The notes beneath the pieces are model-generated. The model ran no database searches and was not told where the DNA came from. It saw only the letters and a program-made list of their open reading frames with translations. This document shows positions 51,210-64,000 of a stretch of 64,000 bases of DNA, piece by piece (the stretch's first letter is position 1; each line of letters opens with the position of its first letter). Source of the stretch: Deltaproteobacteria bacterium. Its GTDB lineage: Bacteria > Desulfobacterota > GWC2-55-46. The stretch lies in assembly GCA_016234935.1 (NCBI GenBank), contig JACRNL010000011.1:129472-193471 (forward strand), written 5' to 3'. The position numbers and the translations under genes are program-made.

Positions 51210-51995
51210 ATGATAACATTGCCGCCGCTTCGATCCCGGATTTTCAGATTCAAGCGCCTCCATGCCGTAATCCTTTTAAGCCTGTTTTTTTTGCGCCCTG
51301 CATCCGTCCTTGCAGGCTTCAGCGTGTCGCCTTTGACAATTGAATTCGACAAGAAGGTAAAAAGCGCTCTGATTTCGATAGAGGCCCAGGGGCCGGAAAA
51401 CGTCAATCTGCAGATGAGGGCCGTCCTGTGGACCCAGGACGCCGACGGCAAGGACGTCTACACGGACACATCCGACCTTATCTACCTCCCGAAATTAATG
51501 ACGGTCAAGGGCAATAAATCGAGGGCGCTGAGGGTTGGCACCACGCAGTCCACTATCGTGGATAAGGAAAAGTGTTACAGGCTGTTCATCGAAGAGATAC
51601 CCGCCCCCAGGAAGGATGCCGAGGGCCCGAACGTCAACATATCATTCAGGTTTGCTCTGCCGGTCTATATAAAACCGGTCAAGGAGATTTACGATTTAAA
51701 GATAGAAAAGGCGGAAATGTCGGGTAAGGGCGTGATTGTTCTTGTCAGGAATTCCGGCAACGCGCATCAGAGGGTATTTACCGTTGACATCAGGGGCAAG
51801 GATTCCGGCGGCAACGCTCTCATGTCCGCCCGGCTCAACGGATGGTATGTCCTTGGCGGCAGTTCAAGTAAATATTTTGCGGAGATACCGAAAGACAGGT
51901 GCAATGAATTGAAGACGATTGAAGTCGAAGTCAATACCGACAGAGGGCCGATTAAACAGGATATCGCGATAGACGCCGCCAAGTGCCAGCCTTAA
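51210..51995 (+). CDS. PapD-like periplasmic pilus chaperone
   Basis: Signal peptide, then FSVSPLTIEFDKKVKSALISIEAQGPENVNLQMRAV... (chaperone N-domain pattern). SD aggagcagg. Confidence 0.75.
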   Translation: MITLPPLRSRIFRFKRLHAVILLSLFFLRPASVLAGFSVSPLTIEFDKKVKSALISIEAQGPENVNLQMRAVLWTQDADGKDVYTDTSDLIYLPKLMTVKGNKSRALRVGTTQSTIVDKEKCYRLFIEEIPAPRKDAEGPNVNISFRFALPVYIKPVKEIYDLKIEKAEMSGKGVIVLVRNSGNAHQRVFTVDIRGKDSGGNALMSARLNGWYVLGGSSSKYFAEIPKDRCNELKTIEVEVNTDRGPIKQDIAIDAAKCQP

Positions 51996-52010
51996 ACTGC
52001 GGGGGGTTTT

Positions 52011-54398
52011 TTGACAGGCCGGCTAATGGACAAAATTGCCGCATTAAAATACGGCCTGCTGATACTGGCTTCTTTAGTTTTTTTTTGCGTTCCTGCTTTT
52101 TCAGAGGAATCGGTGGTCGTTGTCCTTAATGTAAGGCTCAACATGGTGGACAAGGGTGATTTTTACATGATGGCCGCCCCTGACGGGGACTATCTTGTGA
52201 AGACCGAAGAGCTTAAAAAGATGGGTTTCAAGGCCCCGCGGGGCGCGGCTTCCATTATAGAAGGCGCCGAACATATCTCCCTGAAGTCCATGCAGGGCGT
52301 CAGGTTCGTCTACAACGAGGACGCCGTCGCCCTCGAAATCACCGCCGAGCCGTCGCTTCTTGGCAAGGTTATCATTGATTACGCCGGGACCATCTACAAG
52401 GAAAATGTCGAATACACCGGCAGCGGCTTCAGCGCGTTTTTCAACTACAAGCTCAACTATAACGCAGGCATGGATTTTAAATACGAAAGCTCCGTCATGA
52501 CAAATGAAGCGGGGGTGCGCGGCGCCGGATTTCTGCTAAAGACGGATACCGTGTATACGGACACAAACAGCGGCGAAACATTCCGAAGACTCCAGAGCAA
52601 CGTCACCTACGACAGAAGGAATGAACTGCAGCGCATAACGGGCGGCGACTTCTTCGCCTCTTCCGGCGACTTCGGCACCACCTTGAACATGGGCGGCCTC
52701 AGCATAGCCAAGATATACAGGATGGACCCCTATTTTATAAAGCAGCCGCTTTTTAACGTTACCGGCCAGATGGCGACTCCATCGGAGGTCGAGGTCTATC
52801 TTGACGGCGCGCTTATAAGGAAGGAAAAGCTGGCGCCGGGAGAGTTTGAGCTAAGGAATATATCGGCATACAGCGGGGCGGGCAATTATGAGATACTTAT
52901 CAGGGACTCATATGGAAGAGAGCAGAGGATGAGGTATCCGTTCTATTATGCCGATCAGCTCTTAAAGAGCGGTCTGCATGAATACAGCTATAACGCCGGC
53001 CTCATCAGGAAGGATTACGGGGTAAAGAGCGCGGAGTACGGCTCGCCGGCATTTTCCGCGCTGCACAGGTACGGTTTCAGCGACATCCTTACGGTCGGCG
53101 CCGGCGCCGAAGCCTCCGGCGGGACCTATGTGCTTACCCCCCAGATTTCTTACGGCATGGCTGATATAGGCGTATTGGACGTGGATCTGTCCGGCAGCGA
53201 GGACGAGACAATGGGAGAGGGCTGGGCCGGCCTGGCGAGTTACAGGTATGACGGAAGACCCATAAGCTCGAGGGTTATCTTCAGGCAATTCAACAAGGAG
53301 TATATGCGGCTGAGTTCAGCTCTTACCGGCGTGAGGACAAAGTTCGAGATAGGAGCCGGCATAAGCTACTCGCCGGGAAATCTCGGCGCCGCAAGCCTTG
53401 ATTATACCGCCACCAAGATCTACCATGGAGCGGAGAGGAGGACGACCTCCACGACCTATTCCATAAGCCCGTTCAGAGAGGCCATGCTCTCTTTTACATT
53501 AAGGAACAGGAGGACGAAGGCGCCTGAGGGCGATGAATCGGCCAATGAGTTGTTTGTCAATTTCAGCTATTATCCGTGGAAGGATATAAGCGCGTCCGTA
53601 AGCTGGCAAAGGTTAAAGGACGTTGACACGGAGACGGCCCAGATACAGAAGCCTGCGCCGACGGGAGAGGGCTACGGCTACAGGATGGCCGCCGCGAGGG
53701 TGGACGGCCCGGCGGAGCGCAGCACCACGGTTTCCCCGTACGTTCAGTATAACGGCCGCTACGCCAGGATTGTCGGTGAATTTAACGGGATCTACGGCGC
53801 CGCCGGCCAACGCTCGGAAAGGTCTGATCTGTCGGTTGCAGGAGGCATCGGATACGTCGGCGGCAGGCTGGGCCTCAGCCGCCCGATATTAGACAGCTTT
53901 GCCGTCGTGAAGGCGGACGGGCTGAAGGACGTGTCAGTAATGCGCAGCGGCCAGGAGATAGGCAAGACAGACTCTGCCGGCTACGCCTTCGTGCCTGAGC
54001 TTGTTTCATATGTTAATAATACGATAAATCTCGATATAACGGCCATCCCCATGGATTATGCCGTTCATGACGCCGGAAGGACCATAAATCCGGCTTTGAG
54101 GAGCGGCACGTATCTGGACTTTAATATAAGGAAGATACAGGCCGTCACCGGAAGATTAAGGATTAAATCAAAAGACGGCTCGATAAAAGACGCCGAGTTC
54201 TACGAGGTCAGCATGACGGTCAAGGGAGAGGAGCTGCTTTTACCTACCGGCAAGGCAGGAGAGTTTTATATTGAAAACATCCCTGCCGGGCAATACACGG
54301 CGGCTGCTCGCTACCCTGGCACGGCTTGCGCGTTTGAGATTGTAGTCCCGGAGAGCATGGAGACTATTGTGGATTTGGGAGAGGTATTCTGTGAATAG
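52011..54398 (+). CDS. Outer-membrane fimbrial usher
   Basis: 795 aa, signal peptide, beta-rich throughout. Positioned chaperone-usher-pilin. TTG start per the track; alternative ATG at 52026. Confidence 0.7.
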   Translation: MTGRLMDKIAALKYGLLILASLVFFCVPAFSEESVVVVLNVRLNMVDKGDFYMMAAPDGDYLVKTEELKKMGFKAPRGAASIIEGAEHISLKSMQGVRFVYNEDAVALEITAEPSLLGKVIIDYAGTIYKENVEYTGSGFSAFFNYKLNYNAGMDFKYESSVMTNEAGVRGAGFLLKTDTVYTDTNSGETFRRLQSNVTYDRRNELQRITGGDFFASSGDFGTTLNMGGLSIAKIYRMDPYFIKQPLFNVTGQMATPSEVEVYLDGALIRKEKLAPGEFELRNISAYSGAGNYEILIRDSYGREQRMRYPFYYADQLLKSGLHEYSYNAGLIRKDYGVKSAEYGSPAFSALHRYGFSDILTVGAGAEASGGTYVLTPQISYGMADIGVLDVDLSGSEDETMGEGWAGLASYRYDGRPISSRVIFRQFNKEYMRLSSALTGVRTKFEIGAGISYSPGNLGAASLDYTATKIYHGAERRTTSTTYSISPFREAMLSFTLRNRRTKAPEGDESANELFVNFSYYPWKDISASVSWQRLKDVDTETAQIQKPAPTGEGYGYRMAAARVDGPAERSTTVSPYVQYNGRYARIVGEFNGIYGAAGQRSERSDLSVAGGIGYVGGRLGLSRPILDSFAVVKADGLKDVSVMRSGQEIGKTDSAGYAFVPELVSYVNNTINLDITAIPMDYAVHDAGRTINPALRSGTYLDFNIRKIQAVTGRLRIKSKDGSIKDAEFYEVSMTVKGEELLLPTGKAGEFYIENIPAGQYTAAARYPGTACAFEIVVPESMETIVDLGEVFCE

Positions 54399-54411
54399 CG
54401 CATTTAAAATT

Positions 54412-54882
54412 ATGTTCATAAATTGGATGCAGTTTTTATTGTTTGCCCTTGCGCCCTTTGCGGGTGATAGGGCGTATGCCGCCGCCCCAACCTGTACGTT
54501 GACCGCGACGCCAATAAACTTCCCCCTGTATGACTCTTCCGTTGCCGTCACCGCCACCGGTACCGTCACGGTGTCATGCTCAAGCGGCAACCCCGCGTAT
54601 ACGGTATCCCTCGGGCCAAGTTCTGGGAGCAACTCCGTAAACCCAAGGGCGTTAAAGCACCAGACAGTCCCGGATACGCTGACTTATACCATCAGGACTC
54701 CGGCGACGACACAGGGCACCCCTGCCGGAGCGCTCTGGGGCGACGGCACACTCGGCACAATCGTCGTGACTGAAAGGTTCAGGTTGTCGGCTGTGCTTAC
54801 CATGACCGGCGATATCCCGGCCGGACAGGATATGACGTACGGTCTTTACGCTGACAGCATCACGGCTACCGTGACGCCTTAA
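54412..54882 (+). CDS. Spore coat U domain pilin / tip subunit (CsuE-position)
   Basis: Signal peptide, Cys pair (PTCTL...VSCSSG), C-terminal YADSITATVTP. Start at ATG 54412 after the usher stop. Confidence 0.7.
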   Translation: MFINWMQFLLFALAPFAGDRAYAAAPTCTLTATPINFPLYDSSVAVTATGTVTVSCSSGNPAYTVSLGPSSGSNSVNPRALKHQTVPDTLTYTIRTPATTQGTPAGALWGDGTLGTIVVTERFRLSAVLTMTGDIPAGQDMTYGLYADSITATVTP

Positions 54883-55343: not shown

Positions 55344-56945
55344 ATGGATAATGCGGGTGAGGCCGTCTATTACAGAAATAAAGTTCGCGGCAGAGCCGGC
55401 GTCAGGCAATGGATATTTTCAACCGACCATAAGCGCATAGGCGTTTTATACCTCGTCTCGGTTCTGGCCATGTTTTCGAGCGGCGTAGTCCTCGGCGTTC
55501 TTATGAGGCTGGAACTTCTAACGCCCGGGCCGACCCTGATGGGGCCGCAGACCTATAATTCCATGTTCACGCTTCACGGCGTGATAATGCTCTTTCTCTT
55601 TATCATCCCTGCCGCCCCCGGTGTGTTCGGAAACTTCTTCCTGCCCATACTCATCGGCGCAAACGACGTGGCCTTTCCGCGCCTGAACCTCCTTTCATGG
55701 TGGTTTTACATGGCAGGCGCGGCCATTGCCGTGGCTTCTATTTTAATCGGCGCGGGGCCGCCGGACACGGGCTGGACGTTTTACGCTCCGTACAGCCTCT
55801 TCACCGGGCAGGACGTTTCATTGGCCCTTTTTGCCGTCTTCGTGCTCGGCCTTTCGTCGGTGCTGACGGGCATAAATTTTATCGTCACAGTGCACAACAT
55901 GCGCGCGCCCGGCATGGGCTGGTTCAGGATGCCTCTGTTCGTGTGGTCTATCTACGCCACGGCGTGGATACAGGCCCTTGCCACGCCAGTTGTCGGCACG
56001 ACCTTTTTACTGGTGATAGCCGAAAGGTTTTTCGGCATAGGCGTATTCGATCCTGCAAAGGGAGGAGACCCGATACTGTATCAGCACCTTTTCTGGATAT
56101 ACTCCCATCCGGCGGTCTATATAATGATACTGCCGGCAATGGGGATTATCACCGAGATAATCCCCGTATTTGCCCGAAAGACGGTCTTCGGCTACCGGGC
56201 GATAGCGTATTCAAGCCTTGCGATAGCAGGGGTGGGCTCCCTCGTGTGGGGCCATCACATGTTCGTAAGCGGCTACTCCTACACGGCAGGGGTGCTCTTT
56301 TCGTTCTTTACCTTCCTCGTGGCCATACCGAGCGCGGTAAAGGTTTTTAATTGGATCGCCACCCTTCATAAAGGCTCGATAGTCTTTTCCACCCCCATGC
56401 TCTACGCCTTTTGCTTCATCTTCCTTTTTTCCATCGGAGGGCTGACCGGGCTTATGCTCGGCGCGCTTTCTATGAACGTCGTTTTGCACGGCACGTATTT
56501 TGTGGTGGGCCACTTCCACTACGTCAAGTTCGGCGGCGCGGGGTTTGCCTTTTTCGCGGGGCTTCATTATTGGTTCCCTAAGATGTCCGGCAGGCTCTAT
56601 AGCCGGATGAGGGCCAATATCGCGCTGTTTCTGTTGTTTGCCGGCTTTAACATGTTGTACTTTCCGATGTTCATCCTCGGCATCGAGGGCATGCCGAGGA
56701 GATACTTTGACGCTTTGCCGCAGTATCATTTCTGGCAGGCAGTGTCCATCGCGGGCTCGTGGGTGCTGGCGGCAGGCATTATACTGATGCTGGCCAATCT
56801 CGTCCACGCGCTTTTCAGGGGAGAAAAGGCCCCTGAAAACCCGTGGGCAGGGGCGACGCTTGAGTGGACTATCCCGTCACCGCCTGCCCATGAGAACTTC
56901 GTGAAAATCCCTGAGATAAGGCGCGGGCCGTATGATTACCGGTAG
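55344..56945 (+). CDS. ctaD: Cytochrome c oxidase subunit I (heme-copper oxidase, A-type)
   Basis: 533 aa, 12 TM. Conserved His ligands and WFFGHPEVY-equivalent region (FWIYSHPAVYIMILP), GHHMF. Confidence 0.9.
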   Translation: MDNAGEAVYYRNKVRGRAGVRQWIFSTDHKRIGVLYLVSVLAMFSSGVVLGVLMRLELLTPGPTLMGPQTYNSMFTLHGVIMLFLFIIPAAPGVFGNFFLPILIGANDVAFPRLNLLSWWFYMAGAAIAVASILIGAGPPDTGWTFYAPYSLFTGQDVSLALFAVFVLGLSSVLTGINFIVTVHNMRAPGMGWFRMPLFVWSIYATAWIQALATPVVGTTFLLVIAERFFGIGVFDPAKGGDPILYQHLFWIYSHPAVYIMILPAMGIITEIIPVFARKTVFGYRAIAYSSLAIAGVGSLVWGHHMFVSGYSYTAGVLFSFFTFLVAIPSAVKVFNWIATLHKGSIVFSTPMLYAFCFIFLFSIGGLTGLMLGALSMNVVLHGTYFVVGHFHYVKFGGAGFAFFAGLHYWFPKMSGRLYSRMRANIALFLLFAGFNMLYFPMFILGIEGMPRRYFDALPQYHFWQAVSIAGSWVLAAGIILMLANLVHALFRGEKAPENPWAGATLEWTIPSPPAHENFVKIPEIRRGPYDYR

Positions 56946-56961
56946 ACGCGGCGAGGAAGAT

Positions 56962-57573
56962 ATGGGCAAAACAGGCGTTAGAGACGATGCGCGCGGCGCG
57001 GCGGCTCGCCTGGGCATGTGGCTTTTTATAGCCACGGAGGCCTTTTTCTTCCTGGCTCCGCTTCTCCTTTATGCCGCGTATCGATACAGGTATGCATATG
57101 ATTTTCGCGCCGCGGGAGGAGAGCTTAACCTTTTTACCGGCGCGGCCAACACCGCCGTGCTTCTTACGAGTTCCCTTACCATGGCCCTCGCGGTCAATGC
57201 GGGGCAAAGGGGGGATAAGAGGCTTACGGCTGTCCTGCTCGCGGCGACGATTATCCTTGGGTCTGTCTTTCTCGTGATTAAGTATTTCGAATGGACAGCC
57301 AAGATATCCCACGGCATCTATCCAAATTCCGAAACGTTTTCAGGCCGCGCGCGCGGCGAGGTGATATTCTGGGGGCTTTATTTTTTTATTACCGGCCTTC
57401 ACGGCCTCCACGTGTTCATCGGCGTATGCCTTTTAACGGTCATGCTTTTTATGAGGCTTGCCAACGCGTCCGGAGGGAGATACCCGGCGAGGCTTGAGAA
57501 CTGCGGCCTCTACTGGCATGCCGTAGACGTCATCTGGATATATATTTTCCCGTTTTTCTATCTTATGGGATAG
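56962..57573 (+). CDS. ctaE: Cytochrome c oxidase subunit III
   Basis: GLYWHAVDVIWIYIFPFFYL signature. About 5 TM. Start at ATG 56962. Confidence 0.85.
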   Translation: MGKTGVRDDARGAAARLGMWLFIATEAFFFLAPLLLYAAYRYRYAYDFRAAGGELNLFTGAANTAVLLTSSLTMALAVNAGQRGDKRLTAVLLAATIILGSVFLVIKYFEWTAKISHGIYPNSETFSGRARGEVIFWGLYFFITGLHGLHVFIGVCLLTVMLFMRLANASGGRYPARLENCGLYWHAVDVIWIYIFPFFYLMG

Positions 57574-57579
57574 GAGATT

Positions 57580-57861
57580 GTGATGGAGAGAAAGGCTGAT
57601 TATAAGAGCCTTATTATTGTTTGGGCGGGACTAATATTGCTCACGTGGCTTTCTGCCGGCGTCTCCGGCGCCGGCCTTGCGGCGGAGGCGCGTGTGGCTG
57701 TGCCGCTGCTTATCGCAATGCTCAAGGCGTCTTTGGTCTTTTACTTCTTCATGCGCTTCAGGGTGGGCGGGGAGATATTCTGGGTGGTGCTTCCGGCAGG
57801 GCTGATAACGGTAATAATCATTACGCTTCTTGTATTTTCCGACGTGGGTTACAGGTATTGA
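57580..57861 (+). CDS. Prokaryotic cytochrome c oxidase subunit IV (CoxD-like), 93 aa, 3 TM
   Basis: Size, position after subunit III and three hydrophobic helices. Confidence 0.65.
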   Translation: MMERKADYKSLIIVWAGLILLTWLSAGVSGAGLAAEARVAVPLLIAMLKASLVFYFFMRFRVGGEIFWVVLPAGLITVIIITLLVFSDVGYRY

Positions 57862-57906
57862 AGACGCATTGACATTTACGCCGCTAAAAGGCCGGCGGTA
57901 AAAGAG

Positions 57907-58524
57907 GTGCTTTTAAGAATGCTGTTAAGCCAGGCAAGCAATATAGGAAAACTCACTGACGGCGCGTTCATGGCAATTACTGCCATTTGCGTGGCGCTTT
58001 TCCTGACAATAAATATCATTATGCTGTATTTCGCCGTTAAATACAGGAGATCCAGGCATCCGCAAAGCGCGGATATTGATGGAAGCGTTCTGCTGGAGCT
58101 TGCATGGACGGTCATCCCGGCGGCCCTTGTCGTGTTCATGTTTTACCTTGGGCTTAAGGGCTACGCCATCCGGAAGGACGCGCCCGGAGACGCGCTCGCG
58201 GTGAATGTGCGCGGGCAGATGTGGTCATGGATATTTCAGTATGCCAACGGCAAGGAAAGCAGCGCTCTGGCATTGCCCCTTAACAGGGCCGTGAAGTTCA
58301 ATCTGACCTCCGGCGACGTCATCCACAGCTTTTTCATCCCTGCGTTCGGGATAAAGGGGGACGTGGTCCCGGGCAGGCAAAACACCCTCTGGGCCGTCCC
58401 GATTGAAAAGGGTTCTTTTGACGTCTTTTGCACGGAATACTGCGGCGCCGGACATTCGATTATGCTGTCAAAGGCTGTTGTGATGGACGAAAAGGATTTC
58501 GAGGAGTGGTATGGGGCGCGGTGA
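57907..58524 (+). CDS. ctaC: Cytochrome c oxidase subunit II (CuA cupredoxin)
   Basis: Two TM helices, then a cupredoxin domain with CuA motif H...CTEYCGAGHSIM. No fused cytochrome c domain. Confidence 0.85.
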   Translation: MLLRMLLSQASNIGKLTDGAFMAITAICVALFLTINIIMLYFAVKYRRSRHPQSADIDGSVLLELAWTVIPAALVVFMFYLGLKGYAIRKDAPGDALAVNVRGQMWSWIFQYANGKESSALALPLNRAVKFNLTSGDVIHSFFIPAFGIKGDVVPGRQNTLWAVPIEKGSFDVFCTEYCGAGHSIMLSKAVVMDEKDFEEWYGAR

Positions 58525-58550
58525 GATATTTTCCGGCAAGGTTGAAAAAA

Positions 58551-58625
58551 TGGAGGCGGCGAGCGGACTCGAACCGCTGAATCGCAGTTTTGCAGACTGC
58601 TCCCTTGCCACTTGGGTACGCCGCC
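58551..58625 (-). tRNA. tRNA-Cys (anticodon GCA)
   Basis: Reverse complement folds as: acceptor GGCGGCG/CGCCGCC; anticodon stem GCAGT/ACTGC with loop CUGCAAA; T-arm AGCGG-TTCGAGT-CCGCT; discriminator U73; encoded CCA. Confidence 0.85.
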
Positions 58626-58747
58626 GTTTGTTTATCCTGTAATCACTATAAACAGCGGCAATGAACTTTGTCAAGACTTAAAGTTTTTTGCGAGTCTCGC
58701 GCTGCACATTTTTGTTTTTTAAGATATACTCGTATTGAACAAGGTCG

Positions 58748-58788
58748 CCCCTTGAAGGGGTTCAACCCCCTGAGGGCGGTTCAACGCC
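58748..58788. repeat. Repeat family R1 copy
   Basis: ccccttgaaggggttcaaccccctgagggcggttcaacgccg. Confidence 0.8.
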
Positions 58789-59017
58789 GCAACCATACAC
58801 CATCCAGTTCATCTGCGTCAAAACACACCTTAGATCATCTCCGATAGGCATTTCACATGGGCACTGCTGCGTTCCCGGCGCCTTGCAAGCGGTTTTGCCG
58901 CGGCCGAATGAACCGGCCTGTGCAAACGCCCCCACCCTGCCCTCCCCCATCAAGGGGGAGGAGATAAGGAAGTGGTCATCTGAACGCGGGGTTTTAATCC
59001 ACCACAGTCCCCCTTAG

Positions 59018-59036
59018 AAAAAAAAAGGGGGGGGGG
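59018..59036. repeat. Homopolymeric tract A9G10, 45 nt upstream of the HAMP gene start
   Basis: gaaaaaaaaagggggggggg, seen directly. Confidence 0.9.
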
Positions 59037-59047
59037 AAGCCTAAATT

Positions 59048-59068
59048 CCCCTCTTTTCTAAAGAGGGG
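59048..59068 (+). promoter_or_regulatory. Perfect 9-bp-stem, 3-nt-loop hairpin (cccctcttt-tct-aaagagggg) in the 5' leader, 12 nt before ATG 59081
   Basis: Seen directly. Confidence 0.6.
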
Positions 59069-59080
59069 TTAGGGGAGATT

Positions 59081-59689
59081 ATGGGAAAAAAGAAAAAAGA
59101 AGCTTCCGTAATAGACCGTGCCTTCAAGATACGCTTCGGCGTGAAGCTGTGCCTGTTTGCCACGTCGGCGCTTCTGGCGGCGACGGCCTTTGTGTATTCC
59201 GTCACCTCTCAAAAGCTCGGCGGCGGCTATGCCGAGGCTGTCTACACGATAGCAAATCTCAAGGTGAAAATCTTTCCGCTTATCTTCGCTTCGCTCTACA
59301 CGGCAGGGATACTTGCTTTTGCAACTATCTCCATCGCGGTTATCTCCGTATTTTTTTCACACAGGATAGCCGGACCCATCTACCGCATGGAAAGGAGCCT
59401 GGAGGCCATTGAGTCAGGAGACCTCACGACCACGACGAAGCTCCGCTCCGGGGATCAGCTTATGCCTGTTGCCGAGGATATGAACGGGATGGTCAGGGCG
59501 CTTAACCACAGGGTGAAAAGCATGCAAGAAGCCCTCGACGAGATTAAGGGCGACGCCCAAAGGCTTTCGGCCCTTTTGCAGGAAGAAGGACTCGCGGCCG
59601 GAGGCGCAATGGAAAAGGCAGAGGCGCTTAAAGGCGGCGTTGAGAAGCTTAAAAAATCCTCTGTGGTCGTGAAACCGAAGGAATATTAA
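59081..59689 (+). CDS. Membrane protein with 2 TM + HAMP domain + C-terminal coiled coil, no output domain
   Basis: Two TM helices, HAMP-like HRIAGPIYRMERSLEAIESGDLTTTTKL...NGMVRALNHRV, then a helical E/K-rich tail. Confidence 0.65.
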   Translation: MGKKKKEASVIDRAFKIRFGVKLCLFATSALLAATAFVYSVTSQKLGGGYAEAVYTIANLKVKIFPLIFASLYTAGILAFATISIAVISVFFSHRIAGPIYRMERSLEAIESGDLTTTTKLRSGDQLMPVAEDMNGMVRALNHRVKSMQEALDEIKGDAQRLSALLQEEGLAAGGAMEKAEALKGGVEKLKKSSVVVKPKEY

Positions 59690-59690
59690 G

Positions 59691-60494
59691 GTGAAGAAGT
59701 TTTGGCTCATTACGCTCCTGCTGGCGGTTATAGCGCTGTTCGGGGTTTCCGACAGGTTTGTTTCCTCCATATGGCTGAGCTACCACAGTTTCGAGGGCAG
59801 ATGTAATGACTGCCATCTTGTCGTGCCAAAGCCCGGCGAAGGGCCGGGCACGCTTATGAAGAACGTAACCGTCCTTTGCACCTCCTGCCACGCGGAGATC
59901 AAGAATTTTTCGCATCCGGTTGACATGGCGCCGTCCATGCCGGTGCCGGTAAACTTTCCGCTGGACTGGAAAGGGACGGTAACGTGCGTGACGTGCCATC
60001 CCGTCCATGACTACGGACACGGCGAGGCCCATTTAAGGAGCGCTGCGTCGGGCGAGGGGTTTTGCGCGAACTGCCACGGCGATATTGATTCAAAGATGCA
60101 CGCTGCGTCCATCGGCACCGCACACCTATCGGCTTTTCAGGCGGACAGATTCGTAAGGACGCAGGCATCTGTCGATGAGCTTTCCCTTAAGTGCCTCTCC
60201 TGCCACGACTCCCTTGTGGGAAGAGGCGTAGAGGTCGAAAGCAAGGCCGCGACCGAGGGTTACCATGAGGCAAACCAGATAGGGCTTTCTCATCCCATCG
60301 GAGTGTCTTACCTTGAGGCAAAGCGGCTTTATTTTGGCGCGTACAGGGACATTGACAAATTGCCGCCGGAGATACATCTTTTCGGGGGCGTTATAGGCTG
60401 CGGCACGTGCCACGACCCGTATTCAAAGCGGCATTATGAGCTTGTCATGTCGAACGAGATAAGCGCCCTGTGCCTTGCGTGCCATGTAAAGTAG
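59691..60494 (+). CDS. Multiheme c-type cytochrome (7 CxxCH motifs)
   Basis: CNDCH, CTSCH, CVTCH, CANCH, CLSCH, CGTCH, CLACH. Signal peptide. GTG start. Confidence 0.85.
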   Translation: MKKFWLITLLLAVIALFGVSDRFVSSIWLSYHSFEGRCNDCHLVVPKPGEGPGTLMKNVTVLCTSCHAEIKNFSHPVDMAPSMPVPVNFPLDWKGTVTCVTCHPVHDYGHGEAHLRSAASGEGFCANCHGDIDSKMHAASIGTAHLSAFQADRFVRTQASVDELSLKCLSCHDSLVGRGVEVESKAATEGYHEANQIGLSHPIGVSYLEAKRLYFGAYRDIDKLPPEIHLFGGVIGCGTCHDPYSKRHYELVMSNEISALCLACHVK

Positions 60495-60612
60495 GGTGCC
60501 GGGCAATTTTATTAATAGCGCTTTAATACTGCTTTAATGACTCTGTATTAATATGTGTTGACGTCTTAATGGGTTGATTTTTTCCATTAACTATGTTAAT
60601 TTTTAAGGGCGT

Positions 60613-61230
60613 ATGAAAAAAGGCCAATATCCGAAATACAGGAGACGTAATTTTTTCATCAAGAGGCATTTGCAGGGAAAGTTTGTGGCAGGGTTTACAA
60701 TCTTCGTGCTCGCGGGGATAATACTGAACCTGCTGCTTGCGTATTACCTGATAGACTCGCGCCTCACTGAGGAGATATACAGGATACATCTAACGGTAAG
60801 GTCGACCTCGGAGCTGGCGTGGCCGGTGCTTTGGAAGCTTTCGCTCGTGACGGTATGCGTGGGTTTTTTCGCGGCCGTCGGCATAGGATACCACCTGACG
60901 CGCCGGGTCGAGGTGCCTGTTCTGGATTTTATTGGAAGCGTCAGAAGCGCCGCCGGCGCGGACTTCTCGAACAGGTTCGCCAAGACGGGATTTAACGGCC
61001 TGGAAGACCTGCGCGTCTTCTATAACAGGATGGCGCATTCTATCGAAAAAAGGCTCTGTGCCGTCCATGATTCGGCGGTGGAAATGGGAAAGAGCTGTGA
61101 GAAAGTCAGCCGCCTGGCCGCCAAAAAGGCCTTGATGCGGGCTGATATTGAAGAGTTGAGAAAAGAGCTCATGGGCATCGAAGGCGCCGAGTTGAAGGCG
61201 CGCAGGGAATTGGCGCGATTCAAGGTTTAA
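60613..61230 (+). CDS. Membrane 2 TM + HAMP + coiled-coil protein (paralog of 59081-59689)
   Basis: Same architecture. HAMP-like YHLTRRVEVPVLDFIGSVRSAAGADFSNRF...LRVFYNRMAHSI. Confidence 0.6.
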   Translation: MKKGQYPKYRRRNFFIKRHLQGKFVAGFTIFVLAGIILNLLLAYYLIDSRLTEEIYRIHLTVRSTSELAWPVLWKLSLVTVCVGFFAAVGIGYHLTRRVEVPVLDFIGSVRSAAGADFSNRFAKTGFNGLEDLRVFYNRMAHSIEKRLCAVHDSAVEMGKSCEKVSRLAAKKALMRADIEELRKELMGIEGAELKARRELARFKV

Positions 61231-61275
61231 AGCCGGCACGCGCCGGTACGAGAAAAAACGTATTGAGGGCTTAGC

Positions 61276-62403
61276 ATGAGAAAGGCCGTGTATGTATTCA
61301 TGTTGTTGCTTCTTATGGCGCCGGCTTTCGCCGGGACGCTTCATGCGGGCGACTGGCCGATGTTCCTGAAAGACGGGGAGCATTCATCCTATGCCGATGA
61401 CGCGCCCCTTCCGCCGTATGACGTAAAGTGGCGCTTCAGCGCGAAAGGGCCGTTCTATTCCTCTCCCATCGTCTACAAGAAAAAGGTTTTTGCCGGTTCC
61501 TACGACAAAAATATGTATGCCCTTGACGCCGGCACCGGCAAGGTTGTCTGGAGCTTTGTCTCGGAGGACGCTATACTCGGCACTCCTGCCGCGTTCAAGG
61601 ACGCCGTCTACTTCGCCACGAAGGCCGGTAAGGTCTACGCCCTTGCCGTTGACACCGGAAAGCTCATCTGGACCTTCGATGCCGAAGCGGGCGTGATGAC
61701 CTCTCTGCTCGTTGTGGACGATATCGTCTATTTCGGCGCGCAGGACCTTTATTTATATGCCGTTGACGCTAAGAGCGGCAAGCGCCTCTGGCGCCTGCGC
61801 GTGCCTGACACAAGCATATACAGCGGGATATATTCCTCTCCGGTGTATTATGGCGGGTCGGTGTTGGTTTCCGGGAAGAACGGGATCATATACTCGGTCG
61901 AGGCCAAGAGCATGGCGAGGAATTGGTCTAAGAGGGTTATGGCCGCAATGTACTCTTCCCCTGTCGTAAAAGACGGCGTAGTATATGTTTCCACCTACGG
62001 GAAAAAGATGTTCGCGCTGGACGTCAAGACAGGCAAGAACGTCTGGCAAAGGGAGCTTGAGGGCGAGTTTACGTATGCCTCGCCGGTAGTTATAAACGGC
62101 CGCGTATATCAAGGGCTTAAAAACGGCCATATAATGGTGCTTGATACGGCCAAGGGTCTTGTTAAGGGCAATATAAATCTGGGCGCCGCGGTTGATGCCA
62201 CTCCTGTCGGCACATCTTCCGGCATGCTTTTAGCCGGGTGTGCCGACGGGATGTTTTATGCGCTTGACGCGGCAAGCGGCGCCGTCAAGTGGAAGTTCGA
62301 AACCGATGGGGCCATTCATGCGTCTCCCGCGGTCGCAGGGGACGCCATATACGTCTCCACGGTGGAAGGCAGCCTCTACGCTTTTACGCCGCAAAAAAAA
62401 TAA
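61276..62403 (+). CDS. PQQ-like (BamB-type) beta-propeller repeat protein, secreted
   Basis: Signal peptide. Repeated ...G.VY.G..DG.LYALDA.TGK..W... blades (about 8). Confidence 0.8.
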   Translation: MRKAVYVFMLLLLMAPAFAGTLHAGDWPMFLKDGEHSSYADDAPLPPYDVKWRFSAKGPFYSSPIVYKKKVFAGSYDKNMYALDAGTGKVVWSFVSEDAILGTPAAFKDAVYFATKAGKVYALAVDTGKLIWTFDAEAGVMTSLLVVDDIVYFGAQDLYLYAVDAKSGKRLWRLRVPDTSIYSGIYSSPVYYGGSVLVSGKNGIIYSVEAKSMARNWSKRVMAAMYSSPVVKDGVVYVSTYGKKMFALDVKTGKNVWQRELEGEFTYASPVVINGRVYQGLKNGHIMVLDTAKGLVKGNINLGAAVDATPVGTSSGMLLAGCADGMFYALDAASGAVKWKFETDGAIHASPAVAGDAIYVSTVEGSLYAFTPQKK

Positions 62404-62426
62404 CGGTATTTGAGAGAGTGTTAGGC

Positions 62427-63041
62427 ATGACCGCATCTAAAAAAATATCGGTGTTTATCCTGCCTTTTGTCCTTGCCGCATGCGCGGCGGCGTTTGCCGC
62501 CGGCGTCTCATCGGCGGCGGATGCCCCGGCTGTTCCTGCTGCCGCGCCTAAGCCTCCGTATACCGCCATTGAAGCGGTAACAACGATCATAGACCCGCAC
62601 ACGCAGATAAGCGACGAGGGACATATCCTCTGGGAAAAATGCATAATCTGCCACAGGAATGTGCCGGACTTGAAGAAAGAGAAGTCCATAAGCGACGTAA
62701 CGCTCCGTTATGCAAATGAAATGAAGGATCTGTGTCTTGGATGTCATATTGACAGGAAGCACCCCGGGACAGAAGGCGCAAGCGTCATGATGAGCGCCGC
62801 GGAGGCGCCGGATCATCTTGTCGTGCCTTCCCAGACAGTCAAGCAGAATTTGCGTCTCATGCTCAAAAGCACTCCTACGATATTCCCGTTTGATCCCAAG
62901 ACAGGAAAGGTCACATGCGTTACCTGCCACAATCCTCACGAAAAGGGTCTGCAGTCGGGCAAAGCCGGCTGGGGGGCCGGCTCTTTCAAGAGGCTTCGCG
63001 CCGAAGGTGATGATATCTGCCAATACTGCCACAGGAAATAA
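62427..63041 (+). CDS. Multiheme c-type cytochrome (4 CxxCH motifs)
   Basis: CIICH, CLGCH, CVTCH, CQYCH. Signal peptide MTASKKISVFILPFVLAACAAAFA. Confidence 0.8.
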   Translation: MTASKKISVFILPFVLAACAAAFAAGVSSAADAPAVPAAAPKPPYTAIEAVTTIIDPHTQISDEGHILWEKCIICHRNVPDLKKEKSISDVTLRYANEMKDLCLGCHIDRKHPGTEGASVMMSAAEAPDHLVVPSQTVKQNLRLMLKSTPTIFPFDPKTGKVTCVTCHNPHEKGLQSGKAGWGAGSFKRLRAEGDDICQYCHRK

Positions 63042-63290
63042 TGCGTGACGGCAATCCCGAATGCTTATGAGGCGGCGTTTTTGGCGGCCATGGCGCATTA
63101 TGGTTTCTATATTAAACTGATGCGTTTCACCGGCGCCAGTGCTTAAGAGGCCTAATAAATGCGCATGGGCGGAAAAAAAATCTCATACCCCCGCTTAAGA
63201 CCCACGCTTAAGCTTGCCCTCGAATGTTTCTATCGGGGGACACGCGAGGGCAGCCCAGCATCGCTTTCCGTTACCGGCAGGCGCAGGAAA

Positions 63291-64000
63291 GTGGCGCTGG
63301 GGAGGGCAGGCTTCCTGTGTCTTTTCTTCCTCGTCCTTGTCTTTTCCGGCTGTTCCTCCACCAGAGTGTCCGAGCCGCAGGATCAGAGGATAGTCCAGGG
63401 CAGGCGTCTTATCTGGCCGCCCGCTCCGGCCACGGCGCGCGTCGCATTTGTCCAGAGCATCTCTGCCCCTGAGGATATAGGCGCGAACAAGGGTTTTTTT
63501 AAAAAAATATTTGAATTTATCCTCGGCCCTGAAGGCAATGCGGTGCTAAAACCCTACGGCGTCGCAATAGACTCTTCCGGCAGGCTCATCGTGGCCGATA
63601 CCGCTTATAAGAGGATACACATATACGACCTCAAGGCGCCCGGCTACGACTATATTGACAGTGCTGGGGATGCAAAGCTTGAATCTCCCATCGGGGTAGC
63701 TGCCGATGCCGATGGCAATATCTATGTAACCGACCCGGGGGCAAGAAAAGTATTCGCTTACGGGAAAAAAGGGCAATTTCTCTTTGAGTTCGACGCGGGA
63801 GTGAAACCCACCGGCATCGCCGTGAACAGGGTTGACAAGGAAATCTACGTCGTTGATACCGGCGCGCACAGTGTGGGCGTCTACGACCTTAACGGCAACC
63901 GTAAAAGGAGCTTTGGAGTCTGGGGCGCAAAGGGCGGGGGCGAATTCAACTTCCCGGTGGACATATTCATTGACGGATCCGGCGATGTTTATATCACTGA
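63291..64000 (+). CDS. NHL-repeat beta-propeller lipoprotein, 3' end beyond the window
   Basis: Frame-0 ORF open to the window end, so absent from the track. Lipobox LVLVFSGC. NHL blades ...PYGVAIDSSGRLIVADTAYKRIHIYD..., ...PIGVAADADGNIYVTDPGARKVFAY..., ...PTGIAVNRVDKEIYVVDTGAHSVGVYD.... Start uncertain (GTG 63291, or ATG 63165 running through the repeat). Confidence 0.6.
   Translation, partial: MALGRAGFLCLFFLVLVFSGCSSTRVSEPQDQRIVQGRRLIWPPAPATARVAFVQSISAPEDIGANKGFFKKIFEFILGPEGNAVLKPYGVAIDSSGRLIVADTAYKRIHIYDLKAPGYDYIDSAGDAKLESPIGVAADADGNIYVTDPGARKVFAYGKKGQFLFEFDAGVKPTGIAVNRVDKEIYVVDTGAHSVGVYDLNGNRKRSFGVWGAKGGGEFNFPVDIFIDGSGDVYIT

Follow-up and report, generated by a model that had tools for sequence, protein, structure and literature searches.

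We analysed a group of six genes at the end of a 64,000-nucleotide stretch of DNA (the window), which belongs to contig JACRNL010000011.1 of a Deltaproteobacteria bacterium from the GWC2-55-46 lineage. According to the list of open reading frames (ORFs), the six genes (g1 to g6) are located on the + strand and fill positions 59081-64000 with short gaps between them. g1 (59081..59689) encodes a HAMP-only membrane protein of 202 amino acids (aa) and g2 (59691..60494) a heptahaem c-type cytochrome of 267 aa with one N-terminal hydrophobic helix. The 205-aa product of g3 (60613..61230) is a distant paralogue of g1 with the same architecture. These genes are followed by g4 (61276..62403) for a secreted PQQ-repeat/BamB-like beta-propeller of 375 aa, g5 (62427..63041) for a secreted tetrahaem cytochrome of 204 aa and g6 (63159..64000) for an NHL-repeat beta-propeller lipoprotein, which is truncated by the end of the window. 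An earlier note on this DNA had claimed such a six-gene set with a 7-haem and a 4-haem cytochrome, a PQQ-like propeller and an NHL lipoprotein. All of these are present on the + strand, and 7 and 4 CxxCH motifs were counted in the two cytochromes. By comparison with related genomes, the window is predicted to carry the first six of the nine genes (5' two thirds) of a conserved operon for electron transfer by multihaem cytochromes.

A search of an index of 5.8 billion proteins revealed 35 close relatives of g1, all of them about 200 aa long and from uncultivated "Deltaproteobacteria". On two long contigs (L001 and L002), g1 to g6 are followed by three further cytochrome genes. g7 encodes a protein of 727-728 aa with 11 CxxCH motifs, which consists of an OmcE-like tetrahaem domain and a 7-haem extension. 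g8 encodes a small tetrahaem cytochrome (139-153 aa, 4 CxxCH) and g9 a hexahaem cytochrome with two c7-type units (270-294 aa, 6 CxxCH). A scan with one genome per species revealed orthologues in 29 species (L003-L031). Together with the two long contigs, g1 to g9 were found in the same order in 23 loci, and the remaining 8 reach a contig edge. The gene arrangement is not due to chance, because 23 complete loci from other species show it as well. The cytochromes are kept in all orthologous loci with enough flanking sequence.

In the main clade the operon is flanked by divergent hemE-hemH-hemY genes on one side and a DHH/polyA-polymerase gene on the other. The upstream neighbourhood differs in the genome of the window, which has an oxidase operon and a tRNA-Cys gene at the place of hemE-hemH-hemY. 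Beyond hemE-hemH-hemY, the main clade carries a gene with Cache-HAMP-GAF-GGDEF domains, which is absent from the window. Diguanylate cyclase genes of this type (L001 3634-5811, L002 3890-6067 and L166 18836-20738) are located near NHL/OmcE-like clusters with or without the HAMP pair, which hints at a control of these cytochrome clusters by cyclic di-GMP (c-di-GMP). One sub-clade (L022, L023, L025 and L103-L111) contains an extra 1.7-2.7 kb between g2 and g3.

The three genes g1, g2 and g3 (the trio) also occur together in more distant genomes. Starting from g1, the order g1, 7-haem cytochrome, g3 was found in metagenome-assembled genomes (MAGs) of Nitrospirota and other lineages (L036, L043, L050 and L051), where it is sometimes followed by a 4-haem cytochrome. 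In two loci, L060 (Geobacterales) and L066, g1 and g3 adjoin a divergent 6-7-haem cytochrome. For g2, 325 homologues were identified, and a sample of 80 metagenome loci plus the two long contigs was scored with hidden Markov models (HMMs) of g1 to g9. A g1-type gene is located just upstream of g2 in 53 of 56 loci and a g3-type gene downstream of it in 56 of 62. The linkage between HAMP-only proteins and multihaem cytochromes, for which the earlier note had proposed a co-occurrence analysis, has therefore held. Among the six downstream misses, two are on contigs (L105 and L107) which end about 1.3-1.7 kb from g2, before the insert and the following g3 of the related loci, and one (L128) has an overlapping g3-type ORF outside the range of positions used. 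Where at least 4.5 kb were available on both sides of g2, an NHL gene was present in 14 of 16 loci and an OmcE-domain cytochrome in 11 of 16, the latter with 570-735 aa and 10-11 haems. The trio was also found in a Hydrogenedentes MAG, where it is adjoined by the ResB/CcsA genes for cytochrome c maturation (L084).

These findings indicate that g1-g2-g3 is a conserved core, the order of which is kept in several phyla. Multihaem clusters with NHL/propeller partners and OmcE-type cytochromes are known; what appears to be new is the HAMP-only pair together with a heptahaem cytochrome, conserved in several phyla. No description of such a pair bracketing a heptahaem cytochrome was found in the searchable literature on HAMP with nanowires, NHL and multihaem cytochromes, on HAMP-only proteins, on the osc cluster or on GWC2-55-46. 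A placement of Deferrimicrobium in this clade was not confirmed: the paper in question concerns the phylum MBNT15 and does not mention these genes. In a Nitrospiraceae MAG (L043 2389-6778) the trio is directly followed by type II secretion system (T2SS)/type IV pilus genes, which encode a GspE-like ATPase, a GspF-like protein and three pseudopilins.

The g1 protein starts with a basic N-terminus, followed by a first transmembrane helix (TM1), a periplasmic loop of about 20 aa, a second helix (TM2), a canonical HAMP domain (SHRIAGP...GDL...DQL) and variable C-terminal helices. The two hydrophobic segments comprise residues 20-38 and 74-92. The Pfam HAMP profile (PF00672) matches residues 91-142 over profile positions 1-52 of 53 (E 4e-5, 24.3 bits). 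We aligned 33 g1 orthologues (A1) and 20 g3 orthologues from related loci (A2). All 33 members of the g1 family match PF00672 at E<0.01, the best with 6.7e-9, and the domain sits directly after TM2, with the proline of the first amphipathic helix (AS1) and the connector motif G-D-L. In this alignment H94, I96, A97, G98, P99, G113, L115, R122, D125 and N135 are invariant, and D114 is nearly so.

g3 shares the layout with two transmembrane helices, and its HAMP domain appears to be degenerate. PF00672 and HAMP_2 are each matched by 2 of the 20 members of its family, and the only NCBIfam matches of the g3 protein are weak ones on the TM2-HAMP stretch of BaeS (E 0.0025). The earlier note had described g1 and g3 as paralogous. 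BLASTP does not show this, as no significant similarity was detected between the two proteins (E 0.4), but the relationship emerges at the level of family profiles, which were aligned by hhalign from the N-terminus to the last helix with 98.6% probability (E 6e-16, 15% identity) and, with a larger set, with 98.9% (E 1.5e-17). Since the alignment spans about 180 columns, g1 and g3 are old and distant paralogues of a shared architecture. The HAMP assignment has held for the g1 family as a whole; for g3 it is suggested by the full-length profile homology to g1.

Profile searches against Pfam and NCBIfam detected no kinase, signalling domain of methyl-accepting chemotaxis proteins (MCPs) or GGDEF domain in g1 or g3, in agreement with what had been noted from the sequence before. 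The MCP signalling domain PF00015 gives no match at E up to 1, and both proteins stop about 60 residues past HAMP. HisKA plus HATPase_c or GGDEF output was likewise not found, and the NCBIfam kinase matches are confined to the TM2-HAMP stretch (16-25 bits vs. cutoffs of 450-725). At NCBI both g1 (MBI5888800.1) and g3 (MBI5888802.1) are named 'methyl-accepting chemotaxis protein'. The identity as a chemoreceptor is wrong, as the proteins are without the MCP signalling domain.

An AlphaFold2 model of g1, built from the 33-sequence alignment, has a pLDDT (predicted local distance difference test) of 71.6 and contains four helices (8-42, 53-111, 128-167 and 173-194), which fit TM1, the loop, TM2-AS1, the connector, and AS2 with a helical hairpin. 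A Foldseek search of the model against the PDB gave nothing below E 0.29; for a monomer made of helices only, such a result is not informative. Conservation is highest in the periplasmic loop, TM2 and HAMP in the case of g1 and in TM1 and the periplasmic loop in the case of g3; the C-terminal helices vary in both proteins. On the periplasmic side, g3 has acquired a signature consisting of Y44, D48, Y56, H59 and T65. In the H59 column a histidine was found in 88 of 96 proteins at the g3 position. R, a gap or S are commonest in 50 cytochrome-free solo relatives and a gap, Y or F in 100 proteins at the g1 position, with His outside the top three in both groups. H94 of the SHRIAGP motif at the start of HAMP shows another distribution: it is present in 94 of 100 g1-type and 48 of 50 solo proteins and is lost in g3. 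The C-terminus of g3 (61222-61230) is exactly [FL]-K-[VIL]-COOH in about 25 of 27 orthologues, e.g., SKFKV, and the window g3 ends with FKV. A similar I-K-V is located near the end of g1 (59672-59689). Such a conserved tail beyond a variable helix suggests a docking motif for a partner.

Both proteins belong to a large unnamed family of output-less 2TM-HAMP proteins of about 200 aa, for which Pfam and NCBIfam contain no separate entry. An exhaustive profile search over 1.84 billion cluster representatives (clusters at 50% identity) gave 17 matches at E <= 1e-30, 1296 at E <= 1e-10 and 12,156 at E <= 0.001. Almost all of the best 150 matches are 180-210 aa long and aligned end to end. Relatives without cytochromes were found in Spirochaetota, Omnitrophota, Planctomycetota and Bdellovibrionota (L032, L034, L038, L039, L053, L062, L072, L079 and others). 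They carry the N-terminal motif RRxYFIxKxFQxRF and are often located next to genes for secreted envelope proteins with SurA_N-like, PDZ/TPR or SLT domains. Genome annotation mislabels this HAMP-only family as chemoreceptors.

The g2 cytochrome contains 7 CxxCH motifs, all of them invariant, and 6 further invariant histidines. Its gene starts 1 nt past the stop of g1 in the window and overlaps g1 in L001 and L002, which indicates that the two genes are translationally coupled. The first haem motif (H32, C38xxCH42) is located within about 10 residues of the N-terminal helix, whose sequence is not conserved. All g2 homologues checked contain 14 or more His altogether, and 38 of 46 have Met253. 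The argument of a missing haem ligand, drawn from 7 haems and 6 invariant spare His, is thereby weakened. The family profile of g2 matches OmcE (7TFS) with E 5.7e-11. Of the two halves of g2, the C-terminal one is similar to the OmcE-like domain of g7 and the N-terminal one to g5 and g8. None of the curated NrfH, NapC or CymA models of NCBIfam was reached by g2; the NrfH model TIGR03153 gave 22.9 bits vs. a cutoff of 134.2 (E 7e-5) and left the N-terminal region uncovered. An AlphaFold2 model built from 46 sequences without haems has a pLDDT of 69.6 and gave no Foldseek match.

Among the remaining proteins of the window, g4 passes only generic propeller models (PQQ_2, E 3.6e-45; Beta-prop_ACSF4, E 1e-59). 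It was rejected as a PQQ dehydrogenase (TIGR03075, 100.9 vs. a cutoff of 480) and as BamB (TIGR03300, 160 vs. 285). g5, with its 4 CxxCH motifs, is a relative of g8 and of the N-terminal half of g2. g6 matches NHL (PF01436) with 65.3 bits vs. a cutoff of 20, shows three repeats in the visible 280 aa and has the lipobox VFSGC. Its orthologues are 344-360 aa long, and the true start of g6 may be located downstream of 63159.

A link to a known electron conduit is provided by g7. Over its first 237 residues, g7 from L001 can be aligned with the whole OmcE chain of both D. soudanensis (9YUQ, E 2e-24) and G. sulfurreducens (7TFS, E 1.6e-23). The four CxxCH motifs all match, as do the TKH, CHTPH, DHP and C-terminal CH-K motifs. 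OmcE stops where g7 continues for about 490 residues with seven more haems. Relatives of the size of OmcE occur only in some distant loci (L084, L141, L149 and L166). In L166 (10001-11993) the equivalent of g7 consists of two overlapping genes for a 245-aa OmcE-like tetrahaem and a 427-aa heptahaem protein, which is either a true split or a frameshift. Either alternative suggests that an OmcE-type subunit and a heptahaem partner were fused to give g7. The same locus has the NHL, OmcE-like (4 haem) and 7-haem unit without the HAMP pair, and its heptahaem cytochrome is located beside b-type cytochromes (PF01292) instead. By analogy with this single case, the trio may occupy the position that a quinol-oxidising module has elsewhere.

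Upstream of g1, an intergenic leader on the + strand (58626..59080) extends from a tRNA-Cys gene (58551-58625, - strand). It contains an A9G10 homopolymer tract, read from the sequence at about 59020-59039, and a perfect 9-bp hairpin (CCCCTCTTT-TCT-AAAGAGGGG, 59049-59069) immediately 5' of the GGGGAG ribosome-binding site of g1. Tract and hairpin could be a slippage-prone or regulatory leader. The Rfam scan of 58400-64000 gave no match for the leader, and the Rfam, promoter and terminator scans of this region revealed the tRNA and chance-level sites, nothing more. The one sigma-70-like site of the leader (58703-58730) is weak. Beyond the tRNA-Cys, directly upstream of the cytochrome operon, lies an operon for an aa3-type haem-copper oxidase (55344-58524) with the order COX1, COX3, COX4, COX2. 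Its COX2 has the CuA motif and no fused cytochrome c domain. A chaperone-usher pilus cluster (51210-54882) encodes a PapD-like chaperone, an usher and a subunit of the spore-coat-protein-U (SCPU) type. A phage or mobile element was dismissed, as the composition is even across the window.

We favour, with modest confidence and a little above even chances, the reading that the trio serves as a module for docking and relay at the inner membrane, within an electron conduit related to OmcE. HAMP domains function as parallel dimers which form a four-helix bundle. Since g1 and g3 are two always-paired paralogues, a g1/g3 heterodimer is the simplest assumption. It would form a transmembrane four-helix bundle which continues as the HAMP four-helix bundle, and its conserved short periplasmic loops (20-27 residues) would be the docking site for the heptahaem wire g2 at the inner membrane. 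The trio would represent the inner-membrane end of the conduit, because it is the only membrane-integral part of the operon. The HAMP pair might then pass a conformational signal across the membrane, either by gating g2 or by reporting its redox or occupancy state. Docking plus relay is preferred over a plain anchor because g1 has kept its cytoplasmic HAMP in a well-conserved form. Electrons would be exchanged between g2 and three putative periplasmic carriers, g5, g8 and the PpcA-like g9, and would move onward to g7 as the distal OmcE-related element. The propellers g4 and g6 would serve as scaffolds, as proposed for propellers in nanowire clusters. A bolder version of the docking and relay reading regards the trio as a new kind of inner-membrane electron-transfer complex in the place of cytochrome b, in which the His of g3 touches or ligates a haem of g2 and the HAMP bundle gates or reports; this version we consider improbable. 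The same applies to an independent possibility, namely that g7 polymerises via its OmcE domain into a filament with seven-haem side arms.

Several points weigh against the docking and relay reading. We infer heterodimerisation of g1 and g3 and docking of g2 from co-occurrence and conservation only, and the presence of g7 to g9 in the genome of the window itself is deduced from synteny. The HAMP score of the window g1 is 0.7 bit short of the curated cutoff of 25, and the window g3 gives no Pfam match. In some orthologues the N-terminal helix of g2 could be a cleaved signal peptide, as AAA-L motifs in L001 and L002 indicate. Three g2 loci (L149, L153 and L161) are truly without both HAMP partners. 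The OmcE-like domain is widespread, with 4069 homologues from many phyla of which many belong to longer cytochromes; it shows relatedness but is no proof that a filament forms or that the protein is extracellular. Furthermore, none of the nine operon genes encodes a large outer-membrane beta-barrel as found in omcE clusters. Finally, about 45 of 80 g1 relatives in the genome scan sample have no cytochrome neighbour, and the basic function of the family is therefore not cytochrome-specific.

Other explanations of the trio have to be weighed against docking and relay. The three proteins could form a quinol:cytochrome oxidoreductase of the CymA/NrfH kind, in which five TM helices (one from g2 and four from g1 and g3) build a quinol site near the first g2 haem and HAMP is a dimerisation scaffold only. 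The short distance between this haem motif and the helix is in line with this, as is the fact that the operon has no membrane-integral parts other than g1, g3 and the g2 helix. Conserved polar or aromatic residues are located at the periplasmic membrane face (Y50 and K61 in g1; Y44, D48, Y56 and H59 in g3), and the equivalent position in L166 is occupied by a heptahaem cytochrome and a cytochrome b. The NrfH match of g2 (E 7e-5) also points in this direction, but it stays far below its cutoff and does not cover the N-terminal region. Moreover, the TM helices are without a conserved His able to hold a haem b, a pure quinol site does not need the well-conserved cytoplasmic HAMP, and the helix of g2 is unconserved in sequence and may be cleaved in some orthologues. 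We therefore regard a quinol oxidoreductase as doubtful.

HAMP is an established signal-conversion module, and the trio might instead be a split transmembrane redox sensor. In this case g2 would report the redox state of the periplasmic cytochrome pool, His59 of g3 would ligate a g2 haem or sense its ligation, and the HAMP pair would relay the signal to a cytoplasmic partner, e.g., a diguanylate cyclase, at the C-terminal helices or the FKV tail. The periplasmic His specific to g3, the 7 haems of g2 vs. only 6 invariant non-motif His, the conserved extreme C-terminal [FL]K[VIL] of g3 with the similar IKV in g1, and the Cache-HAMP-GAF-GGDEF gene near the operon in the main clade and in L166 would fit such a sensor. 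However, an external ligand is not required in view of the at least 14 His in every g2 homologue checked and Met253 in 38/46, and the GGDEF neighbour is absent from the window and present in L166 without the HAMP pair, so that it is not tied to g1 and g3. A sensor with seven haems would be large, conservation of the C-terminal helices is low, and the position of the genes inside a structural operon with translational coupling suggests a stoichiometric structural complex. A split sensor is accordingly even more doubtful than a quinol oxidoreductase. Least probable of all seems a role of g1 and g3 as assembly or export factors for the OmcE-like cytochrome, i.e. as an inner-membrane platform for haem loading, secretion or polymerisation outside the working electron path. 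The T2SS/type IV pilus genes after the trio speak for it but occur in one locus only (L043), and the operon itself encodes no ATPase or channel. Maturation genes (ResB/CcsA, L084) and divergent haem genes (hemE, hemH, hemY, main clade) are adjacent, and cytochrome-free relatives are located beside envelope-biogenesis proteins (SurA_N-like, PDZ/TPR, SLT), yet the constant partner is g2 and not the OmcE-domain protein.

How cytochrome wires connect to the inner membrane, and how they are controlled from it, is unclear outside a few Geobacter and Shewanella models. The operon offers a compact and widely distributed candidate for this connection from uncultivated groundwater lineages, with a pair of HAMP proteins as the membrane part and not a cytochrome b or an NrfD-type protein. 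If it is true that the pair gates or reports electron flow, one of the commonest bacterial signalling modules would have a new task, with a HAMP domain at work inside a respiratory complex rather than a receptor.

The closest known systems are the omcE clusters, whose minimal form consists of 2 multihaem cytochromes, 2 beta-propeller lipoproteins, OmcE and a large beta-barrel (bioRxiv 10.1101/2025.10.22.684050). The word HAMP does not occur in this preprint. With the omcE clusters of Desulfuromonadia the operon shares two multihaem cytochromes (g2 and g5), two propellers (g4 and g6, of which g6 is a lipoprotein) and the OmcE-type tetrahaem domain; propellers and cytochromes are likened to those of Geobacter by class only, not by orthology. 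Genes for cytochrome maturation or haem synthesis are located nearby in both cases. This composition and the OmcE-like domain of g7 in the orthologous loci support the reading as an electron-transfer module, which the earlier note had proposed. In contrast, the OmcE subunit has 220-250 aa and 4 haems in omcE clusters and is part of a fused protein of 728 aa with 11 haems here, and three extra genes (g1, g3 and carriers of the g8/g9 type) are present.

The inner-membrane end can be compared with three further groups of proteins. CbcBA and ImcH are inner-membrane heptahaem modules of Geobacter, and CymA and NrfH are quinol dehydrogenases of the NapC/NirT type. As in these systems, a cytochrome with about seven haems at the inner membrane together with small membrane partners would form the start of an extracellular chain, but the partners here are HAMP proteins without haem-b ligands. 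MCPs and histidine kinases such as BaeS, CpxA and WalK have the same two TM helices with HAMP directly after TM2. They differ by their output domain, which is missing here, whereas the periplasmic part of g1 and g3 comprises only about 20-27 residues, and the occurrence of two diverged paralogues in one operon points to a heterodimer. Chemoreceptors with c-type haem are known from Geobacter, where GSU0582 and GSU0935 are sensors with periplasmic haem-c PAS domains, and from Desulfovibrio (DcrA). In these receptors, as proposed for the trio, a periplasmic c-type haem is functionally joined to a cytoplasmic HAMP domain. However, they carry one haem in their own sensor domain and an MCP output, whereas the haems of the trio are located in a separate seven-haem protein and its HAMP proteins have no output.

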